32,000 bases of DNA. Origin: Candidatus Methylopumilus planktonicus (lineage in GTDB: Bacteria; Pseudomonadota; Gammaproteobacteria; Burkholderiales; Methylophilaceae). A model generated the notes under the pieces. The model was not told the DNA's origin, did no database searches, and saw only the letters and a program-made list of their open reading frames with translations. How positions within the stretch are numbered: position 1 is the stretch's first letter; every line of letters begins with the position of its first letter. The stretch is taken from NCBI RefSeq assembly GCF_006364715.1, contig NZ_CP040984.1:421446-453445 (forward strand), in the 5' to 3' direction. Position numbers and translations under genes: made by a program. Positions 5,241 through 21,806 of the stretch are shown in pieces.

Positions 5241-6245
5241 TTAAAAATTAACCCAGGCTTTTGTTTTAATGGAGGCTTGAATTGCTTCTAATGTTTTTGT
5301 ATTCCAAAGCGCATCAACTAGAGAAAGTTTGGGCGCAGTGTTATTAATGATGCATTGATTAAAATGATCTATTTCAAGTGTAAAGTGATTAGCTTTTTCA
5401 ATACGCTCATTCTTTGAGCCATCTGCATCTGTTGTCATGGTTAATTGTGCCTCATCATTTTCATGTTGCCATACGGTATGACACATCAACTTCCCTTTAG
5501 ACCCAAAGACTTCAAATTGAGAGCGTCTCACACATTCAAAGCTAATATCAAATTGCGCACGTCGATTCAGACCAAAATCAATCATGCCCGAAGTAGTTAA
5601 ATCTGCCCCATGATCGTTAAGATGGCTTGTTGCAACAACTGATAAGGGGTTCTGATCAAAGCATTGTCGAATCGTATGAATAGCATAGGGTCCAATGTCC
5701 CAGAGAGCGCCACCACCATTTTCAATTGATCGATCGATACGATAAAAACGTGCAGGCTGGATTGGAAAAGAAAACATTGAATGCACATACTGAACATCAC
5801 CTAACAATCCTGAACTAATGATTTCTTTTATACGATCAAACTGTGGATGAAAGACATACATAAAACCTTCCATCACTTTGACATGATTTTTATCAGCCGC
5901 CTCCTGAATTAATTCAACTTCTTTTGAATGAAGCGTGATCGGCTTTTCTATGAGCACATGTTTTTTTTTATTGATTGCTTTAAGAGCGGGCTCAGTATGC
6001 TCTTCGTTCGAAAGTGGGATATAAATAGCGTCTATATCAGGATGATTAATTACTTCATCTAATGAATTGAAGGTTTGAACTTTGCCTACAAGTGCGGGCT
6101 GGTATTTTTCCAAGCATTCTGCTGCTGCATTCTGCCTCCTACTTCCAATAGCAACGAGCTCACCAAAAGGACTATTAGCAATAGCTGGAAGAAGGCGTTC
6201 ATTGACTCGCGCAGCTCCTAGAATGCCCCAACGCACTTTTTTCAT
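5241..6245 (-). CDS. Gfo/Idh/MocA family oxidoreductase
   Basis: 334 aa. The N-terminal Rossmann motif is VRWGILGAARVNERLLPAI, with EKP in LIEKPITL typical of the family. Confidence 0.88.
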   Translation of the reverse strand: MKKVRWGILGAARVNERLLPAIANSPFGELVAIGSRRQNAAAECLEKYQPALVGKVQTFNSLDEVINHPDIDAIYIPLSNEEHTEPALKAINKKKHVLIEKPITLHSKEVELIQEAADKNHVKVMEGFMYVFHPQFDRIKEIISSGLLGDVQYVHSMFSFPIQPARFYRIDRSIENGGGALWDIGPYAIHTIRQCFDQNPLSVVATSHLNDHGADLTTSGMIDFGLNRRAQFDISFECVRRSQFEVFGSKGKLMCHTVWQHENDEAQLTMTTDADGSKNERIEKANHFTLEIDHFNQCIINNTAPKLSLVDALWNTKTLEAIQASIKTKAWVNF

Positions 6246-6364
6246 TTTTATAATCTTAAATTAAACGATGTTTTATTATGATCAGCCTTTAGTTAATAAA
6301 CAAGCCATCATTTCTAAGTAGTTTCAGGTTGAGAAAAGAGTTATTAAATGAGATCATTTGACCC

Positions 6365-6745
6365 ATGAAATTTATAATTCTCTTCTCATTTCTTTTCCCT
6401 ATTAAGTCTTTTGCTGATTGGTCTTTAATTCATCAAGATGATGCTGATCATTACATGGATTATGCGCTGATGAGTAAAAATGGGCATAAAGCGAGAGTCT
6501 GGTATTTACAAAATTATGCCGAAATTCAGGCTATTAAAAATATCCAATATCGATCTATTAAAAATAGATCGGAGTTTGATTGTAAAACTCGAAAAATGAG
6601 AATTCTAGCTTATGCTTTGTACCCAGAACCTATGGGCCAGGGCCATGCTTTATTTAATAAAGGGGAGGCGCTCGATTGGCAGGCTGTTAAACCTAAAACG
6701 CTTAATGATTTATATTTAAAACGTGTCTGCAACAAAAAGAAATAG
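6365..6745 (+). CDS. secreted protein, surface-adhesin-E-like
   Basis: 126 aa with signal peptide MKFIILFSFLFPIKSFA. The pattern W.L...YMD...(S)EFDC..RKMRIL...P.G.G...W..V...VC resembles the adhesin E family. Confidence 0.55.
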   Translation: MKFIILFSFLFPIKSFADWSLIHQDDADHYMDYALMSKNGHKARVWYLQNYAEIQAIKNIQYRSIKNRSEFDCKTRKMRILAYALYPEPMGQGHALFNKGEALDWQAVKPKTLNDLYLKRVCNKKK

Positions 6746-6749
6746 AGTT

Positions 6750-7064
6750 TTATTTACGTCCGCGTTTAGGTAATACAACACCAAGTCTTTGAGCAGCCAT
6801 TTCATTATTACCTTCTGAGTCTGCTAAAACCCATCCAGTCATAAACATACGTGTCATATATTGTCTGTTGTATAAAAAAGCCACAATAACCTGCCATAGT
6901 CCCAGTGTGATAATTGAAAAAAGCATATGAAGAGCTGCAACACCTAATTCACCTCTAAAAAGCGGGACAAACCAACCAAAAAAAAGATAGGTCCAACTAA
7001 AGCCATAGTAACCAATTTTGATCATGCCCGAATTTGGATGTTTAATAATTACGGCAGTAGCCAT
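6750..7064 (-). CDS. small membrane protein (two TM helices)
   Basis: The track ORF (6750..7160) runs into the tRNA-Lys gene. The internal ATG at 7064 (MATAVIIKH...) has an AGGAA SD 6 nt upstream and avoids the overlap. Confidence 0.65.
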   Translation of the reverse strand: MATAVIIKHPNSGMIKIGYYGFSWTYLFFGWFVPLFRGELGVAALHMLFSIITLGLWQVIVAFLYNRQYMTRMFMTGWVLADSEGNNEMAAQRLGVVLPKRGRK

Positions 7065-7127
7065 TGTTGTTCCTTGGTTTAGAAGGTTAAATTTTAATAG
7101 AGATTGCGAGAAAAAAACTAATATTAA

Positions 7128-7203
7128 TGGTGGGGGATGCGAGGGTCGAACTCGCGACAAACGGATTAAGAGTCCGCTGCTCTACCAGCTGAGCTAATCC
7201 CCC
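7128..7203 (-). tRNA. tRNA-Lys (anticodon CUU), the only intact copy
   Basis: The reverse complement reads GGGGGATTAGCTCAGCTGGTAGAGCAGCGGACTCTTAATCCGTTTGTCGCGAGTTCGACCCTCGCATCCCCCACCA. It forms a 76-nt cloverleaf with anticodon loop CT-CTT-AA and an encoded CCA. Confidence 0.93.
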
Positions 7204-7290
7204 AGAAAAGAACATTTTACAGTATTTGTGGGGGTTGTAGAGGGGGTAGGATTGGGGATTTTGTTGGGGCTGGAATAGGGGTGTGTTAGG
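7166..7290 (-). repeat. repeat unit copy 1: tRNA-Lys positions 1-38 plus about 87 nt of G-rich (plus strand) leader
   Basis: Matches 8525-8650, 9298-9370 and 15515-15640 in direct orientation. All copies keep CAGAAA..ATTTTACAGTA next to the tRNA 5' end (TAAAAT on the tRNA strand, a likely -10). Confidence 0.85.
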
Positions 7291-7303
7291 AAATCACCAA
7301 TAG

Positions 7304-7333
7304 TTGACAACATTGGGGGGGGGTAGATATTAT
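7304..7333 (+). promoter_or_regulatory. sigma70-type promoter TTGACA-N18-TATTAT with a G9 homopolymer in the spacer
   Basis: TTGACA at 7304-7309, G9 at 7315-7323 and TATTAT at 7328-7333. It lies upstream of the 7410 HTH gene. Confidence 0.6.
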
Positions 7334-7364
7334 CTACATGCACTGTAAAAGTGCACATTGTGAT

Positions 7365-7389
7365 GCCTATTTTGATATAGGCTTATTTT
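7365..7389 (+). terminator. weak terminator-like hairpin in the leader of the 7410 gene
   Basis: Stem GCCTAT (7365-7370) / ATAGGC (7377-7382) followed by TTATTTT. It is preceded by a second hairpin TGCAC-N7-GTGCA (7339-7355). Confidence 0.4.
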
Positions 7390-7409
7390 AACCTTATCTC
7401 ATTTTTAGC

Positions 7410-7676
7410 ATGGATAATTTTGAATATAACTTTGAGCTATTAAAAGCTACACGCTTAAGTAAAAAAATCTCAGCGCAAAGTATGGCTGCTGATTTATGTT
7501 TGGCTGAACGTCAAATCATTTCTATCGAAGAAAATAGCGTTCAATATTTTCCTTCTAAATCTCTTAAATACACCAGCTTAAAAAAATACATAGCAGCACT
7601 TGGTTTAAAAAATGAGGATGTCATCTTCAATTTTAATGAAGTTGACCCCACCCCAAGTTTGTTAAAGAAGCCATAG
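7410..7676 (+). CDS. RodZ-N-terminal-like (HTH_25-type) DNA-binding protein, paralog 1
   Basis: 88 aa with the pattern LLK.TR..K.IS....A..L.L...QI..IEEN....FP......LKKYIAALGL. It is paralogous to 17498..17764 and 20450..20836. Confidence 0.7.
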   Translation: MDNFEYNFELLKATRLSKKISAQSMAADLCLAERQIISIEENSVQYFPSKSLKYTSLKKYIAALGLKNEDVIFNFNEVDPTPSLLKKP

Positions 7677-7679
7677 AGT

Positions 7680-8069
7680 ATGCGAGCATTTGGTAATCTA
7701 TTCATTATTTTAAGTATTTTCACCTCAATACTCTTTGGACTTGAGTATTTTTCTGAAGCTACAATTGTGTTCTTAGCAGTTCTTCTGTATCTCACAGGGC
7801 ATTATGTGAGGCATAATTTTACCTATCGCAATTTTAAGATAAGCAGGCGATCAAAACCTTTTTTTGAATCAATATTAAAAAATACAATACAAGCCATTGC
7901 CTATGTAACTATCTTCATTTTTGTAGGCTACATACTCCTAAAAATCTCAAAAACTGATTTTTATCTAAATAATCTCCAAAGTTTGATGCAAAGCTCTATT
8001 GATGTAATCAATGAAATAATCAGATTTTGGATTAACTTACCTAGTCAATTAATGAAGTATGGACAATAA
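7680..8069 (+). CDS. membrane protein (variable middle gene of cassette 1)
   Basis: 129 aa with three hydrophobic helices. It starts 3 nt after the previous stop and overlaps the next gene by 11 nt. Confidence 0.55.
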   Translation: MRAFGNLFIILSIFTSILFGLEYFSEATIVFLAVLLYLTGHYVRHNFTYRNFKISRRSKPFFESILKNTIQAIAYVTIFIFVGYILLKISKTDFYLNNLQSLMQSSIDVINEIIRFWINLPSQLMKYGQ

Positions 8070-8388
8070 GCATCCTTTATTGACGAGTGCTTGTGAATAT
8101 ATAGAAATAAATCTTCATCTTAAGATTTCGATGTTAGATCTCAAGCGCCATACCAATTATTCCGAACGATCTTTACAGTTAATATTTAAAAAATACTTAA
8201 ATAAAAGTCCATTTGAATATATTGAAGAGCAAAGATTGTTAAAGGCTCACGAATTGATTAAGCAGCATAAACAATCAAAGAAAACTACTCACATTGCTAC
8301 AGAAGTAGGATTTAGACATTTAGGAAGATTCTCTGTGAACTTCAAAAAAAGGTTTGGCATTCATCCTTCAGTTTTAGCTCGATCTTAA
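8059..8388 (+). CDS. stand-alone AraC/XylS-type HTH regulator (SoxS/MarA-sized), paralog 1
   Basis: 109 aa containing only the AraC double-HTH region (LQLIFKKYLNKSPFEYIEEQRLLKAHELI...GFRHLGRFSVNFKKRFGIHPS). Confidence 0.8.
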   Translation: MDNKHPLLTSACEYIEINLHLKISMLDLKRHTNYSERSLQLIFKKYLNKSPFEYIEEQRLLKAHELIKQHKQSKKTTHIATEVGFRHLGRFSVNFKKRFGIHPSVLARS

Positions 8389-8400
8389 CTTAGAGATCAC

Positions 8401-8417
8401 CGTCAAAAATTTTGACG
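8401..8417. repeat. perfect palindrome CGTCAAAA-A-TTTTGACG at the cassette 3' boundary
   Basis: 8-bp arms. Related copies occur at 18528-18544 (degenerate) and 22705-22719, each just after a stop codon. Confidence 0.6.
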
Positions 8418-8420
8418 TTC

Positions 8421-8440
8421 GGTGTGCTTAGGTGTGCTTG
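8421..8440. repeat. tandem GGTGTGCTT x2, candidate arm-type integrase binding sites
   Basis: GGTGTGCTTAGGTGTGCTTG lies about 40-55 nt from tRNA-like relic copy 2. The same GTGYGC motif recurs next to copy 4 and the integrase at 15413-15453. Confidence 0.4.
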
Positions 8441-8477
8441 CTGATTTCAATCGAGAAAAAACTTCTATCTCTGCCAC

Positions 8478-8650
8478 TGCCTGGGTCTACTAGGGTGAGA
8501 TCTCAGAAAATTTAACTGATCTGCGAGTCCGCTGCTTGACCAGCTGAGCTAATCCCCCAGAAAAGAACATTTTACAGTATTTGTCTGGGTTGCAGAGGGG
8601 GTAGGTCGGGGGATTTTGGTAGTGGTGGAATAGGGGTGTGCTACGAAATG
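8478..8650 (-). pseudogene. tRNA-Lys relic copy 2 with a decayed 3' half, plus a leader copy
   Basis: 8525-8558 matches tRNA positions 1-34 with 2 mismatches. On the tRNA strand, 8478-8504 reads GAGATCTCACCCTAGTAGACCCAGGCA against the tRNA's GAGTTCGACCCTCGCATCCCCCACCA (about 17/27 with one gap). 8559-8650 is a copy of the G-rich leader. Confidence 0.6.
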
Positions 8651-8665
8651 CTGGTTTTTTTTAGC

Positions 8666-9271
8666 TCAAATTTCTCTAATAGCCGTGCTAATGACTTTAT
8701 AGGATGAGCGTAGCAAAAAGATTGATAGTGCTAATCCCACCACGATATCTGCCCAACCACTCTGTGTAAACCACACAATAAGTGATGCAATGATGACAGC
8801 AATATTATTTGCAATATCATTTCTTGAACATTCCCAAACAGATGACATATTAATATCTTGATCTTTGTGTTTTGTAAGCAAATACAAACAAGTTAAGTTT
8901 CCTAATAATGCTATAACACCTACAACACTCATGATTTCAAATACAGGAATCGTGTGATTGATAATATGTTGGATGACTTGAAATAAAACAAATAATGCAC
9001 CGACTAATATTAATAGTCCTTTAAATAAAGCCACTTTAGCTTTAGCTTGATTGCTCTTATAGATGACAAATAAACTTAAAGCATAAGTAATCGCATCACC
9101 TAAATCATCTAAGCTTTCTGACATCAAGCCTGTTGAATGTGACATCCAACCAGAACTAAAAACAATTAAGAACAAGAACACGTTAATCGCTAAAACGATT
9201 TTTAATGTTTTTGATTGATTTACTTTTAAGGCATCAACAGCACAGCTTTTATTTTCGCAGCAATCTGACAT
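8666..9271 (-). CDS. cation diffusion facilitator-like transporter (membrane domain only)
   Basis: 201 aa with a Cys-rich N-terminus (MSDCCENKSC), a TM2-type acidic motif SESLDDLGDA, and six hydrophobic segments. Confidence 0.6.
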   Translation of the reverse strand: MSDCCENKSCAVDALKVNQSKTLKIVLAINVFLFLIVFSSGWMSHSTGLMSESLDDLGDAITYALSLFVIYKSNQAKAKVALFKGLLILVGALFVLFQVIQHIINHTIPVFEIMSVVGVIALLGNLTCLYLLTKHKDQDINMSSVWECSRNDIANNIAVIIASLIVWFTQSGWADIVVGLALSIFLLRSSYKVISTAIREI

Positions 9272-9297
9272 TTCTTATCTTATTAAGTTGAGTTTTA

Positions 9298-9370
9298 GCT
9301 GCTCTACCAACTGAGCTAATCCCCCAGAAAAGAACATTTTACAGTAATTGTCTGGGTTGTAGGGGGTTTC
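9298..9370 (-). repeat. tRNA-Lys relic copy 3: positions 1-28 plus a truncated leader
   Basis: GCTGCTCTACCAACTGAGCTAATCCCCC has 1 mismatch to the tRNA. It is followed by AGAAAAGAACATTTTACAGTAATTGTCTGGGTTGTAGGGGG, and homology then stops. Confidence 0.75.
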
Positions 9371-9484
9371 TAATGGTGTAAATCGTATTCTAAGTTTTGT
9401 TGTGCGCAAGTGAAAGTTCAAAAACCATACACAGCGTATGGAAAAAAGTATTAGAATGATTTTAATAATTTAGAAAATACTTAA

Positions 9485-10012
9485 ATGTTTAATTGGACAA
9501 AAAACTTTTACAAAAAAGATTATTCAATACCTTTAACAATGGTTTTAGTTTTTGTTGTTTATTGGTTTGTCAAGACTGCAGTTAAGCATTCAGCCGCAAC
9601 TCCTTTCGTTTGGAGCAAAGGAATTTATGACGAAATATTTTCCATAGCGTTTGTTTTTATTTTTTTTAGAGTCGTTTTCTTAAAGACAAAATCAATACAA
9701 AAATTTATCTTCTATCAACATAGTTTTTTATGGCTTCTTACTAAAATTATTTGGTTTGTAAGTATAGTGTGGCTTTGGATTTTTCTTAGTTTTGAAATTC
9801 CAAAAATTACAACCAATATAATTTACAAAGCTACAGATTTACCTGTATATGTTATTGATCCCTGTAGTTATTGGACAGAAGAGTTGGATAGATATGCAAG
9901 TTGGACAAAGGAAGAGGAAAGTGAAGCCTTAAAATTTTGGAAAATTGATGATGTTTGGGGTTTTGATTCAAAATGCGCACCACGAGAATTTGAACGAGAT
10001 GAGCAATACTAA
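9485..10012 (+). CDS. hypothetical membrane protein
   Basis: 175 aa with three or four hydrophobic helices and an acidic C-terminal tail. No family recognised. Confidence 0.45.
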   Translation: MFNWTKNFYKKDYSIPLTMVLVFVVYWFVKTAVKHSAATPFVWSKGIYDEIFSIAFVFIFFRVVFLKTKSIQKFIFYQHSFLWLLTKIIWFVSIVWLWIFLSFEIPKITTNIIYKATDLPVYVIDPCSYWTEELDRYASWTKEEESEALKFWKIDDVWGFDSKCAPREFERDEQY

Positions 10013-15480: not shown

Positions 15481-15640
15481 TGGCTGTAGGATGGGGTGAC
15501 TCTGAACAACGTTTTTAAGAGTCCGCTGCTCTACCAGCTGAGCTAATCCCCCAGAAAGTGATATTTTACAGTAATTGTGGGCGTTGTAGAGGGGGTAGGT
15601 GGGGGGATTTTGGCAGGGGTGGAATGGGGGTGTGTTGAAA
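15481..15640 (-). pseudogene. tRNA-Lys relic copy 4 (perfect 5' 38 nt, decayed 3' half) plus a leader copy
   Basis: 15515-15552 is identical to tRNA positions 1-38. On the tRNA strand the continuation is AAACGTTGTTCAGAGTCACCCCATCCTACAGCCA against the tRNA's TCCGTTTGTCGCGAGTTCGACCCTCGCATCCCCCACCA, with ordered blocks CGTT, GAGT, ACCC, CATCC and CCA. 15553-15640 is the G-rich leader. Confidence 0.65.
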
Positions 15641-16959: not shown

Positions 16960-17391
16960 TAATTATTCCTTTTCAGTTATTAAGATTATGTTGAGTAGAT
17001 CAACATTGATAATCTATCCAAAAAGTATTTAAGATTTGTGACAGGACATTAATATTCACAGTAATTAGTTTTTTTTATAATTAAGTTATTGTAGAATTAA
17101 TTTTGTATCAGAAGTCTCCTTAAATAACCTTCGCGAACTTATTTAATAGCCCCTTCAATGGGGCTATGTCTTGTCTAATCTCTGCACATGAAAACACTTA
17201 AAACAATTCAAAAATTTATCTCTGATTATTTGCCACTAAAAATCTCAATAGAAAATATTAGATTTATTCTTATTTTTTTAATACTCTTATTTACAGCTTT
17301 GCTTTTGGCAGGCCTCATTGAATATAACAGTAAAAACTTCTGACGGTTGTTTCAAAAAGTCGTTTAAAACGAATTTTTTTGTCATCATTAA

Positions 17392-17484
17392 CTGACATAA
17401 ATATTTCATCATAATTTCACAATCAACAGATATTGTGTAAATGTTCTCCAAAGAATACTTGCCCTCGTAATGAGGGCTTTTTTT
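17392..17484 (+). promoter_or_regulatory. conserved 93-bp promoter/leader block ending in an intrinsic terminator (copy L2)
   Basis: Starts CTGACATAAATA and ends GCCCTC-GTAAT-GAGGGC-T7. It is 77/93 identical, ungapped, to 20239-20331. Confidence 0.6.
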
Positions 17485-17497
17485 ACTAGAAATATCT

Positions 17498-17764
17498 ATG
17501 AATAAACTTGAATACAATTGTGATCTACTAAAAACTACTCGCGAAAGCAAGAAGATTACAGCACATAGTATCGCCGTTGATATATGTTTAGCTGAGCGTC
17601 AGATTAAGTCTTTAGAAGAAAATAGTCTTCAATACTTTCCCTCTCAATCCATCAAATACACAGCTTTAAAAAAATATATAGCCGCACTGGGATTAAAAAT
17701 TGATGACGTTATCGTTAACATTAATCAAATTGATCCAATACCCAGCTTATTAAAGAAGAAATAA
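17498..17764 (+). CDS. RodZ-N-terminal-like HTH protein, paralog 2
   Basis: 88 aa and collinear with 7410..7676 (for example DICLAERQIKSLEENSLQYFPSQSIKYTALKKYIAALGLK). Confidence 0.7.
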   Translation: MNKLEYNCDLLKTTRESKKITAHSIAVDICLAERQIKSLEENSLQYFPSQSIKYTALKKYIAALGLKIDDVIVNINQIDPIPSLLKKK

Positions 17765-17768
17765 GCCT

Positions 17769-18179
17769 ATGAAATTTAAATATACAATTTTGCTTTTTGC
17801 ATGGGTTATAAGTTCTTCTTTATCCCATGCGTCTGATTTCGATTCCCTGTCAGAGCTTATTCAAAAAGGTAAGGAAACCGAAGCAATTGCAAAAATTAAT
17901 CGGTATATACAAAAATACCCAAACGACCCCAAGGTAAAATTTATTTATGGGGCAACCCTTGACCATTTTGGTAGGACACAAGAAGCCAAAAAAGTTTTTT
18001 TACATTTAAATCGTAAATACCCAAATAATCCTACTATTAAGAATAATCTTGGTGTTCTCTATGCAAAGCTGGGTGAATACAGTGCTGCTTATACTTTTTT
18101 TGGATCTGCCTTGAGATTGAAACCTAATTATCAAGAAGCTAAAAATAATCAATGGCTTGTTCAACAGAAGATTAACTAA
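17769..18179 (+). CDS. secreted TPR-repeat protein (variable middle gene of cassette 2)
   Basis: 136 aa with a signal peptide ending SLSHA. TPR-like repeats include NNLGVLYAKLGEYSAAYTFFGSALRLKPNYQEA. Confidence 0.7.
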   Translation: MKFKYTILLFAWVISSSLSHASDFDSLSELIQKGKETEAIAKINRYIQKYPNDPKVKFIYGATLDHFGRTQEAKKVFLHLNRKYPNNPTIKNNLGVLYAKLGEYSAAYTFFGSALRLKPNYQEAKNNQWLVQQKIN

Positions 18180-18186
18180 TTTTTAT

Positions 18187-18516
18187 ATGAGCCAAAAAGA
18201 TCCTGTATTTTTAAGTGTATGTGAATATATACAAGCTAATGTTAAATCTAAAATCACCATGTCAAATCTTGAGAGGTACGCTGCGCTTTCTGGAAGAGCT
18301 TTACAGTTAAAATTTAAGAAATATCTAAACAAAACACCCTTTCAATACATACAAGAACAAAAGATGTTAAAGGCGCATGAGTTAATTAAGGAATATCAAT
18401 GCTCTAAAACAATCTCAGAAATTGCTCTTGAATTAAAATTTAGCCATTTAGGAAGATTTTCTGTGAACTTCAAAAAAAGGTTTGGCATTTATCCTTCAGT
18501 TTTAGCTCGATCTTGA
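18187..18516 (+). CDS. stand-alone AraC/XylS-type HTH regulator, paralog 2
   Basis: ATG 18187 (MSQKDPVF...) gives 109 aa, the same length as paralog 1. The track start at 18157 overlaps the TPR gene. The last 70 nt are 68/70 identical to 8317-8386. Confidence 0.8.
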   Translation: MSQKDPVFLSVCEYIQANVKSKITMSNLERYAALSGRALQLKFKKYLNKTPFQYIQEQKMLKAHELIKEYQCSKTISEIALELKFSHLGRFSVNFKKRFGIYPSVLARS

Positions 18517-18924: not shown

Positions 18925-19299
18925 TTAGTTTTGTGTTGGTGGGTTTTTAGCTGGCGTAACTTTTTTTGGTCTTTTAGCCCTTGGTTTTGCCTTAGTGCTT
19001 GATTTTGTTTTAGCTTTGGCTTTCACTGGAGCCGCAACACTTAATTTTTTAGCAATACTACTAAGTGAAGTTGTTAATGATTTAGCAAGCCTTTCTGCTT
19101 CAGCTTTTCTTTTCTTTTGTGTCACTTTGTCACTACTCTTGATAGCGCTAATGGATGCTTTTTGCTGTGCTTGCATTTCTGCTCTTAGAAAAGCATCTAA
19201 CGCTTTAGCGATATTATTAACCTTCTTATTGTTAGAAGGTTTGGTTTTACTCTTTGTTGCTACGATCTTTTTGACTACTTTTTTTGAATTTTTTTTCAT
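18925..19299 (-). CDS. Lys/Ala-rich histone H1-like nucleoid-associated protein
   Basis: 124 aa with extreme K/A content and AKxK-type repeats (PVKAKAKTKSSTKAKPRAKRPKK). Confidence 0.55.
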   Translation of the reverse strand: MKKNSKKVVKKIVATKSKTKPSNNKKVNNIAKALDAFLRAEMQAQQKASISAIKSSDKVTQKKRKAEAERLAKSLTTSLSSIAKKLSVAAPVKAKAKTKSSTKAKPRAKRPKKVTPAKNPPTQN

Positions 19300-19431
19300 G
19301 TCTTACCCCCCAGAGGATAAAAAGTCTTTATTAATAAATGTCATACTAATGTCACAATAAAAGTGTAGGGAATATTTTATAAAAAAACAATATCCGCTTG
19401 CCACTTTTAAAGCACTAAATTTTAGACTTGA

Positions 19432-20331: not shown

Positions 20332-20449
20332 CCCAAAGATTATGTCTCTAAAACATATATTACAAGGGGACGGTAGATCCAATAGTCCTTGTATTAACAA
20401 ACTCCAATACCTAGGCCTATTTAAGTAAAGAATTTCTTCTAACCTTATT

Positions 20450-20836
20450 TTGGTGTTTGATATCGATAATTTTGAATATAACTTTGAGCTTCTTAAAAAG
20501 ACGCGTGAAGATAAACAAATGAGCAAGCTCGAAATGGCTCATCAACTATGCTTATCTGTAAATCAAATTGATTCCATTGAAGAGAATAGCTTTAGATACT
20601 TTCCGGCAGAATCTATAAAGTTCGCAGCAGTCAAAAAATATGTATTAGCACTTAATTTGGATTTAGATCAGGTAATAATAAAAGAAGACGAGGTGGCTCC
20701 GCTTAATGCCCCCTCAACAGTTCCTTCATTACTCTCAAAAGAAAAAAATAAGATTAAAAAAGGCACTTACAGAAACAAAGCCAATGAATTAAGAAAAGCA
20801 TGGCAAGACTTGTTGCGTAGATTGCTTAAAAATTAA
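20450..20836 (+). CDS. RodZ-N-terminal-like HTH protein, paralog 3 (longer, basic C-terminal tail)
   Basis: 128 aa with a TTG/GTG start (20450/20453). DNFEYNFELLKKTRE...NQIDSIEENSFRYFPAESIKFAAVKKYVLALNL is collinear with paralogs 1 and 2. Confidence 0.65.
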   Translation: MVFDIDNFEYNFELLKKTREDKQMSKLEMAHQLCLSVNQIDSIEENSFRYFPAESIKFAAVKKYVLALNLDLDQVIIKEDEVAPLNAPSTVPSLLSKEKNKIKKGTYRNKANELRKAWQDLLRRLLKN

Positions 20837-20900
20837 TCGAATGACAATTAGCTATATAAATCAAAGTGCTTATATGTTTATCAAAAATTAACACACAGAC

Positions 20901-20922
20901 TTATCCACAGATTTTGTGGATA
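20901..20922. promoter_or_regulatory. inverted pair of DnaA-box-like 9-mers
   Basis: TTATCCACA (20901-20909) is a perfect consensus. After a 4-nt spacer comes TTGTGGATA (20914-20922), the reverse complement of TATCCACAA. Confidence 0.4.
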
Positions 20923-21071
20923 CATTCATTCATACAAGTATTAATCCTTTGTCATAATTCTAAAAAGCTTCTTAGCCCCGTAATCAAGCGTTCATAATTT
21001 CTTCTCTAAAACATCACAATTCATTACTAATATAGGTATTACTGATTAATTAACTTTAAAGGCTCCTACCT

Positions 21072-21464
21072 ATGACAACCCTTGCTGAAATACTAGTAAA
21101 TTCCAAAAGAAAATTCTTTAACAACGTGATCCGTCAGGAATTAGATCATTTCCCAATATCACCAAAGCTTATTCAGGAAATCGATGATGTATATACTCTT
21201 GATTTTTTAGAACCTAGCTTTAAGGATCTTGAGCGAATAAAAAAACCTACACCTTATATGATTGTTGAGATGATGGAAGAGTGGGTAGCGGTATCTAATT
21301 TAGATGAGTATCTATATAACAACTATCCAAAAGACTGGTCAGCCATACAAGATATTATTTTCTTTAACTTAAGAGATGAGTTATTGAATGCGCATCACAC
21401 CTTCCATCAAGAAACAAAATTTGATGATGATTACGGATTAAATGAAATGGCTTTTTACTTCTAA
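21072..21464 (+). CDS. hypothetical acidic protein, tandem paralog A
   Basis: 130 aa, collinear with the next gene (L..L....K.F......EL..F..S.KL..EID..Y..D.LE..F..LE... NY..DW.AI.D.I..NL..EL.NAH). Confidence 0.5.
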   Translation: MTTLAEILVNSKRKFFNNVIRQELDHFPISPKLIQEIDDVYTLDFLEPSFKDLERIKKPTPYMIVEMMEEWVAVSNLDEYLYNNYPKDWSAIQDIIFFNLRDELLNAHHTFHQETKFDDDYGLNEMAFYF

Positions 21465-21806
21465 GTGGAGTCTTTAGCCAAACTTCTTATCAAGCATAAA
21501 AATAAATACTTTATGCGAGAGTTAGAGAGCGAGTTATCTGAGTTCAAGGCTTCAAAGAAATTGATGAAAGAAATCGATGAAGCCTACTCAAAAGATTTGT
21601 TAGAAAAATGTTTTAGTGGACTTGAGCATAAGAAGCAATTCTCTCAAAAAAGTGCTGATCTTATGATTGAGCTTTGGTTTGATCTCTCAGGGTTTCAGAA
21701 ATACATTCAAAAAAATTATAGTGATGATTGGGTAGCCATTCACGATGTTATTCATCTTAATTTAAGTGAAGAGCTCATGAATGCGCATTATGATATTCAT
21801 AATTAA
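21465..21806 (+). CDS. hypothetical acidic protein, tandem paralog B
   Basis: 113 aa. The GTG start immediately follows the stop of paralog A. Confidence 0.5.
   Translation: MESLAKLLIKHKNKYFMRELESELSEFKASKKLMKEIDEAYSKDLLEKCFSGLEHKKQFSQKSADLMIELWFDLSGFQKYIQKNYSDDWVAIHDVIHLNLSEELMNAHYDIHN

Follow-up and report, generated by a model that had tools for sequence, protein, structure and literature searches.

The window, by which we mean the whole 32 kb stretch of DNA analysed here, contains a three-gene cassette that reads away from a tRNA-Lys(ctt) gene and is headed by a promoter-like site in which nine consecutive G residues lie between the -35 and -10 hexamers (Table 1). The cassette of helix-turn-helix (HTH), membrane and AraC genes at 7410-8388, which a sequence-only reading of the window had placed behind this promoter, is present as described, and the distance from promoter to operon start is 76 nt. 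The HTH_25 protein encoded by gene 1 has homologues in more than 250 clusters at 90% identity, all named members of which come from Ca. Methylopumilus (universalis and planktonicus), and the exact protein of the window is also encoded on the 1.3-Mb chromosome CP040970. A phage origin of this protein was considered and rejected, as it has no relative in the viral contig collection.

Gene 3 overlaps gene 2 by 11 nt, and the AraC-family domain PF12833 spans residues 30-108 of its 109-residue product, which gives full-length matches to RamA (7bef) and MarA (1bl0). This is the architecture of the MarA/SoxS/RamA-like regulators, proteins of about 110-130 residues that consist only of the double-HTH AraC DNA-binding domain. 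Because its scores fall below the NCBIfam cut-offs of each named orthologue, the match is one of family type and does not point to a specific orthologue. The possibility that the genes form a defence system was also rejected, with PADLOC returning only a weak generic HTH match and NCBIfam only generic AraC matches under the cut-offs.

Table 1. Positions in the window of the cassette genes, the promoter and the neighbouring elements
Feature	Position	Strand	Remarks
tRNA-Lys(ctt), island anchor	7128..7203	-	divergent from the cassette
Repeat D1, copy 1, 125 nt: 5' half of tRNA-Lys and G-rich upstream region	7170..7294	+	
-35 hexamer TTGACA	7304..7309	+	TTGACA in 60/61 related promoters, TTGATA in 1
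5' part of the spacer, ACATT	7310..7314	+	variable in relatives: ACAAT, ACACT, ACAGC, ACATTAT and others
G9 homopolymer, hypermutable element	7315..7323	+	G7-G11 in relatives; G7, G9 and G10 in an identical promoter haplotype
TAGA (YAGA) between tract and -10 box	7324..7327	+	TAGA 45, CAGA 15, CTGA 1 (n = 61)
-10 hexamer TATTAT, family pattern TAnnnT	7328..7333	+	T1 33/33, A2 33/33, T6 32/33 haplotypes; middle variable
Inverted repeat TGCAC-N7-GTGCA	7339..7355	+	at the predicted transcription start (~7340)
Terminator-like hairpin GCCTAT-N6-ATAGGC with T-rich tail	7365..7389	+	inside the leader
Gene 1, 88-aa HTH_25 (XRE/RodZ-N-type) DNA-binding protein	7410..7676	+	PF13413, E = 4.5e-8
Gene 2, 129-aa predicted membrane protein without family assignment	7680..8069	+	variable middle gene of the cassette family
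Gene 3, 109-aa AraC-family DNA-binding domain alone, MarA/RamA/SoxS size	8059..8388	+	PF12833, E = 1.3e-19

The layout of the promoter proposed in the sequence-only reading, with TTGACA, an 18-nt spacer containing G9, and TATTAT, was confirmed from the sequence, the spacer being made up of ACATT, the tract GGGGGGGGG and TAGA. A consensus scan gave this site 11 of 12 consensus matches and ranked it as the top promoter-like site within 6000-9500. The G+C content of the window, judged by eye to be about one-third, was computed as 33.9%. The G9 tract is the sole run of G or C of at least 7 across the 32 kb, and the expected number of G runs of at least 9 in the window is 0.004. The generalised motif TTGACAACA-N-YAGATAYWMT has one match in the window and none in 100 shuffles.

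The cassette sits beside tRNA-Lys(ctt) in the additive flexible island fGI-2 of "Ca. Methylopumilus". This island has been described in Ca. Methylopumilus planktonicus/universalis by its signature of tRNA-Lys(ctt) followed by recurring copies of ACCAGCTGAGCTAATCCCCC that bound variable cargo (PMC10872708), and the window has the same boundaries: the 20-mer ACCAGCTGAGCTAATCCCCC recurs four times with variable cargo between, at 7184, 8539, 9306 (one mismatch) and 15533 (15533-15552). A term search of the main text of PMC10872708 found no mention of homopolymer, AraC, helix-turn-helix or cassette. The modules of the island are bounded by D1 repeats, with further copies at 8525-8649 and 9292-9416, and the promoter module begins immediately 3' of the first copy. 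In addition, the island contains two genes for integrases and two more paralogous cassettes, whose HTH genes lie at 17498 and 20462. The four related genome loci all come from Ca. Methylopumilus or Methylophilaceae.

Upstream of tRNA-Lys, a G-rich stretch (7230-7281) contains five runs of 4-5 G spaced 7-8 nt apart, similar on the + strand to a G-quadruplex motif. This stretch is repeated in the second D1 copy and partly in the third, and in one related locus (L091) one of its runs has expanded to G9. On CP040970 the cassette occurs as a tandem duplicate (L001 3001-3979 and 4495-5473) in which each copy has its own G9 promoter, the second with TTGATA as its -35 box. Where CP040970 has this second copy, the window has a cation-efflux gene (8666-9271).

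Conservation of the promoter across cassettes

The comparison set consisted of 139 related loci, given below by L numbers, which were drawn from complete genomes, metagenome-assembled genomes and metagenome contigs. These contain 61 promoters of the same layout (TTGACA, 5-7 variable nucleotides, G7-G11, YAGA, TAnnnT), each with a homopolymer of at least about 7 between recognisable -35 and -10 elements. Among 33 distinct haplotypes, conservation of the -35 box reaches 99%, whereas the flanks are far less conserved, with 62% identity over the 20 nt upstream and 49% over the 30 nt downstream. Such a profile of hexamers against flanks is the footprint expected of a sigma-70-type promoter, and the hexamers proposed from the window behave in this comparison as those of a real promoter.

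The position of the G tract has remained unchanged while the HTH protein behind the 61 promoters has diverged to about 77% identity, and an identical promoter was found in front of HTH proteins sharing only 60% identity. In distant homologues (60-65% protein identity), G9, G8 or G7CGGG stands before MAGATATAMT (G9 or G8 before CAGATATACT), with a -35-like box 17 nt upstream in two of the three. The promoter forms the 5' edge of a recombining unit. Depending on the genome, this unit lies behind the tRNA repeat or behind a terminator, and at its gene end the homology shared by cassettes from different contexts sets in at the start codon. A role for the tract as a recombination or attachment core was rejected, as on the promoter side this homology begins shortly before the -35 box ("TAGTTGACA") and not at the tract.

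Over 303 kb of related loci, every G/C run of at least 7 falls into a few types of intergenic site, with 46 of the runs at this promoter. The tract is pure in all 61 promoters, next to non-hexamer sequence that has diverged by 40-50%, a count that is partly circular because the search pattern demanded a pure run of at least 6 G. Interrupted tracts are few, comprising GGGGAGGGG in L007, GGGGACGG in L008 and in the third cassette of the window (20366), and G7CGGG in L083. The persistence of the tract at 34% G+C argues for selection, acting either on the tract itself or on its mutability.

Tract length among relatives

The number of G residues in the 61 promoters is seven in 5, eight in 24, nine in 25, ten in 6 and eleven in 1, and the spacer measures 16 nt in 3, 17 nt in 22, 18 nt in 25, 19 nt in 7, 20 nt in 2, and 21 and 22 nt in one each. 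An invariant G9 had been set beforehand as the outcome that would speak against a switch; what was found is a range of G7 to G11 across relatives, metagenome contigs included. When a haplotype is defined by an identical -35 box, 5' spacer and 60 nt downstream, the G number is polymorphic in all seven exact haplotypes that have more than one copy. The haplotype of the window itself occurs with G7 (L129, and also L134 with one extra substitution), with G9 (five copies including the window) and with G10 (L132). Tract length therefore varies among close relatives while the flanks stay identical. The longest such comparison sets L107 and L108 against L111 over 1080 nt without a substitution, the sole difference being G10 against G9. 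L129 and L131 have no substitutions over 888 nt and differ by G7 against G9 and one T-run indel, and L132 and L134 have two substitutions over 752 nt and G10 against G7.

All of these tract comparisons come from consensus assemblies, and homopolymer length in short-read assemblies carries some error. The polymorphism could on this account reflect errors of sequencing or assembly at a homopolymer that is hard to read and whose true length is stable, and it fits such an account that the comparison data are all consensus contigs of short-read assemblies, several of which start or stop at or near the tract (for example L010, L037, L059, L117 and L118). However, differences of 2-3 nt separate contigs that are otherwise identical, and these are unlikely to be consensus errors. 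The lengths are also reproducible, with G8 in five of five independent assemblies of one haplotype and G10 in four of six of another set. Complete isolate genomes carry long tracts as well, G9 occurring twice in CP040970, and a related poly-C tract has lengths of C17 and C9 in two Ca. M. universalis genomes. Taken together, an artefact appears highly improbable.

Control tracts, defined as runs matched by identical 10-nt flanks, allow this instability to be compared with that of other homopolymers. Among A/T runs of modal length 7, one of 35 is polymorphic; at modal length 8 this rises to five of eight (7 of 43 copies off the mode), and G/C runs of modal length 8-9 are polymorphic in four of four (9 of 26 copies off the mode), the last two being small numbers. 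Within these small samples the trend is the expected one, towards the G tract as the run that slips most and over the widest span of lengths, and the G tract is also the run whose position should make its length count. In the same intergenic regions, T runs behind terminator hairpins also vary between otherwise identical contigs, with T8, T10 and T9 in L020, L021 and L024, T9 or T10 in L129-L134, and T5/T7 and T6/T7 in L087-L096. Instability is thus not unique to the G tract, because long T runs (8-10) behind nearby hairpins vary too, and homopolymer slippage seems to be generally frequent in these populations. The genome paper (PMC6794327) makes no mention of mutS or mutL.

Compensation between the two parts of the spacer was sought, and haplotypes with a 7-nt 5' spacer have no shorter G tracts, so that their spacers reach 18-22 nt. 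Total spacer length therefore seems to be weakly constrained, and selection for a constant 17-nt spacer is not evident. In a further explanation, the tract is kept for something other than its mutability, for example as a binding site or as an element of DNA structure, and its changes in length are noise from slippage that is tolerated and hardly affects expression. The conservation of the flanking ACA...T and YAGA together with the tract would suit such an account, as would the 77% of alleles at 17-18 nt and the occurrence of slippage in long T runs. But tracts of 7 to 11 G move the flanks by up to 4 bp, which would be intolerable for a site of fixed geometry, and known promoter physics predicts an effect from spacers of 16 to 22 nt. 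Nor is a candidate binding protein known, and we regard this explanation as rather unlikely.

Leaders and sister cassettes

The leader between the -10 box and the start codon contains two further elements (Table 1). The inverted repeat TGCAC-N7-GTGCA is found in most promoter haplotypes, not all, and could serve as an operator or form the initial hairpin of the 5' untranslated region. The terminator-like hairpin downstream of it has a z-score of -2.4 and keeps its six pairs in 16 leaders, one pair showing compensatory AU/UA changes in five sequences, and is a possible attenuator. Because this hairpin lies between the promoter and the start codon, promoter activity may not equal operon expression, and the palindrome and conserved hairpin together suggest that attenuation may act on top of the promoter. 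A described RNA element was rejected, as an Rfam scan of 6500-10000 at a permissive threshold gave the tRNA only.

Such a leader raises the possibility that the hexamers are not the promoter of the operon. The tract would then lie in a transcribed leader, or the site would drive an RNA of about 50 nt ending at the hairpin, and the operon would be transcribed from elsewhere. This would explain a conserved terminator-like hairpin behind the promoter, and it accords with the strong terminator that lies 17 nt before the ATG in sister cassettes lacking the tract; terminators in sister leaders do, in turn, suggest that read-through control is a trait of the family. Against this, the two hexamers are conserved in the way expected of -35 and -10 boxes, the cassette begins at its 5' end with the promoter module behind several unrelated upstream sequences, and the stretch between hairpin and ATG contains no alternative promoter. 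We consider it very unlikely that the operon is driven from elsewhere.

The island in the window carries three paralogous cassettes (7410-8388, 17498-18516 and 20462-21806) built to a common plan. An HTH_25 gene comes first and is followed by a middle gene that differs between cassettes (for a membrane protein, a TPR protein or a protein of no assigned type); the third gene is an AraC DNA-binding domain in cassettes 1 and 2 and has no Pfam match in cassette 3. Upstream of the third cassette (20366-20378) lies GGGGACGG-TAGAT, where no -35 box can be recognised; a similar site occurs in L008, and GGGGAGGGG in L007. This site looks like a decayed, locked or degenerate relative of the poly-G promoter.

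The leader of the second cassette (17388-17497) belongs to a class without a tract, present in about 30 loci (e.g. L035, L040 and L097-L106). It combines the promoter-like TTAACT-16-CATAAT with a conserved leader of about 70 nt and the strong terminator GCCCTCGTAATGAGGGC followed by T7 (17461-17484), just 17 nt before the ATG. With a terminator in this position the operon needs read-through, which hints at control by an attenuator or a riboswitch-like element, or at a small RNA; the class has no Rfam family match.

Two other tracts occur in this family of loci. A second poly-G site in the island, TATCCTCT-Gn-TAAGAC-ATG, has its tract at 19306-19311, read as C6 on the + strand and as G6 on the - strand, and precedes a minus-strand gene (18925-19299). 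This gene encodes a Lys/Ala-rich basic protein of 124 aa that resembles histone H1. Between the tract and its start codon lie 6 nt, which places the tract at the ribosome-binding region and not in a promoter spacer, and the tract is G6 in the window, G7 in L040, G8 in L051 and L069, and G9 in L055. In a sister upstream class, a cassette with a 98% identical HTH protein lies behind a histidine kinase and a LuxR-type response regulator, and a poly-C tract of 8-17 separates the stop codon of the response regulator from the HTH gene (L004 ~2935-2951; also L017, L018, L028, L029, L033, L034, L036, L038, L039 and L139). This tract is C17 in CP040953 and C9 in OZ239115, and the copy in L066 is interrupted. 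A possible promoter for the class is TAGTCT-A-Cn-GCAATAC-TATACT, which has a 17-nt spacer at the modal C9.

A candidate switch and its known counterparts

The conservation of the hexamers, the retention of the tract and the variation of its length make it reasonably likely that the site is a sigma-70-type promoter with a slippage-prone poly-G tract in its spacer that tunes or switches the operon. In the proposed mechanism, replication slippage (slipped-strand mispairing) would add or remove G residues. With the -35 box (TTGACA) and the -10 box (TAnnnT) both fixed, their separation and relative rotational phase would change. Promoter strength would shift as a result, and transcription of the operon for the HTH_25 protein, the membrane protein and the MarA/RamA-like AraC-domain protein would be tuned or switched. 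G8 would give the optimal 17-nt spacer, and the earlier statement that loss of one G in the window leads to this length is arithmetically sound. The G9 of the window, at 18 nt, would probably be on yet below the maximum, while G10-G11, or nine and more G behind a 7-nt 5' spacer, would give 19-22 nt and a promoter that is weak or off.

The effect of tract length on transcription is predicted here from the 17 ± 1 nt spacing rule only. Since 47 of the 61 alleles have spacers of 17 or 18 nt, both normally functional, graded tuning is as likely as on/off switching; clearly off alleles are rare among the 61, and the tuning could be modest.

The suggestion of the sequence-only reading that expression of the cassette may be phase-variable has gained support in every part that sequence can address. 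In this free-living bacterium of reduced genome, the poly-G tract is thus a strong candidate for an expression switch driven by slippage; its transcription start, an influence on expression, reversibility within a clonal lineage and any adaptive value are inferred. As a recombining fGI-2 cassette has this promoter at its 5' edge, a population would be expected to carry mixed expression states of an accessory regulator. Since two DNA-binding proteins are encoded together with a small membrane protein, a single switch could affect many target genes at once.

The bacteria of this lineage are abundant in fresh water, free-living and oligotrophic, with few regulators in a 1.3-Mb genome, and two-component systems and sigma factors are greatly reduced in number in planktonic Methylophilaceae (PMC6794327). 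We tentatively raise the possibility that these reduced-genome bacteria hold an fGI-2 family of mobile regulator cassettes with contingency-switch promoters that partly replace lost environmental sensing. The spacer poly-G, the poly-C of 8-17 of the sister class and the poly-G at the ribosome-binding region of the neighbouring gene might all be members of such a family. If the switch is real, accessory regulators would undergo stochastic, heritable switching in one of the most abundant freshwater bacterial lineages. If tract length sets expression, the microdiversity of the plankton would include heritable expression states that are missed by comparisons of gene content. In practical terms, assemblies of fGI-2 and pangenome analyses should take these tracts as real variation and not as error.

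Literature searches combining Methylopumilus or bacterioplankton with phase variation returned nothing relevant, and no prior report was found at this locus. The mechanism itself is of a known kind; what is new is the organism, the accessory regulator cassette as its target, and its conservation across the cassette family. The closest counterparts are porA of N. meningitidis (poly-G) and fetA of N. gonorrhoeae (poly-C), which show phase variation through the promoter spacer (van der Ende 1995 and Carson 2000, as cited in PMC5320596). According to PMC5320596, spacer homopolymers modulate the transcription of these genes, which backs the Neisseria part of the precedent claimed for spacer homopolymer control. 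Both systems share with the promoter described here a G/C homopolymer of strain-variable length between the -35 and -10 boxes. In porA and fetA this length sets the spacing and facing of the boxes and hence transcription in graded steps, which is proposed for the present promoter by analogy. The settings differ, with a free-living freshwater methylotroph of reduced genome here and a host-adapted pathogen there, as do the targets, which are cytoplasmic regulators with a small membrane protein in place of an outer-membrane antigen. Unlike porA and fetA, the present promoter is known from its sequence alone, travels with an additive-island cassette and recurs on many paralogous cassettes.

Repeat-driven contingency loci have been studied mostly in host-adapted pathogens. 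Here the same device recurs in dozens of variants of the cassette, and in natural populations its polymorphism is plain to see. In fim2 and fim3 of Bordetella pertussis, a poly-C tract separates the site of the activator BvgA from the -10 box, and in hifA and hifB of Haemophilus influenzae a TA dinucleotide repeat lies in overlapping divergent promoters. These resemble the present promoter in that a repeat tract within a promoter alters the spacing of its elements, and differ in that the tract here is a mononucleotide run between canonical -35 and -10 boxes. Phase-variable regulators are also known, among them the homopolymers of flgS and flgR in Campylobacter jejuni, the poly-C of bvgS in Bordetella and the Mod phasevarions, all of which act by frameshift through tracts in coding sequence. 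With these the cassette shares a regulator as the switched product, so that one tract could switch many target genes, whereas its tract lies in the promoter and not in coding sequence.
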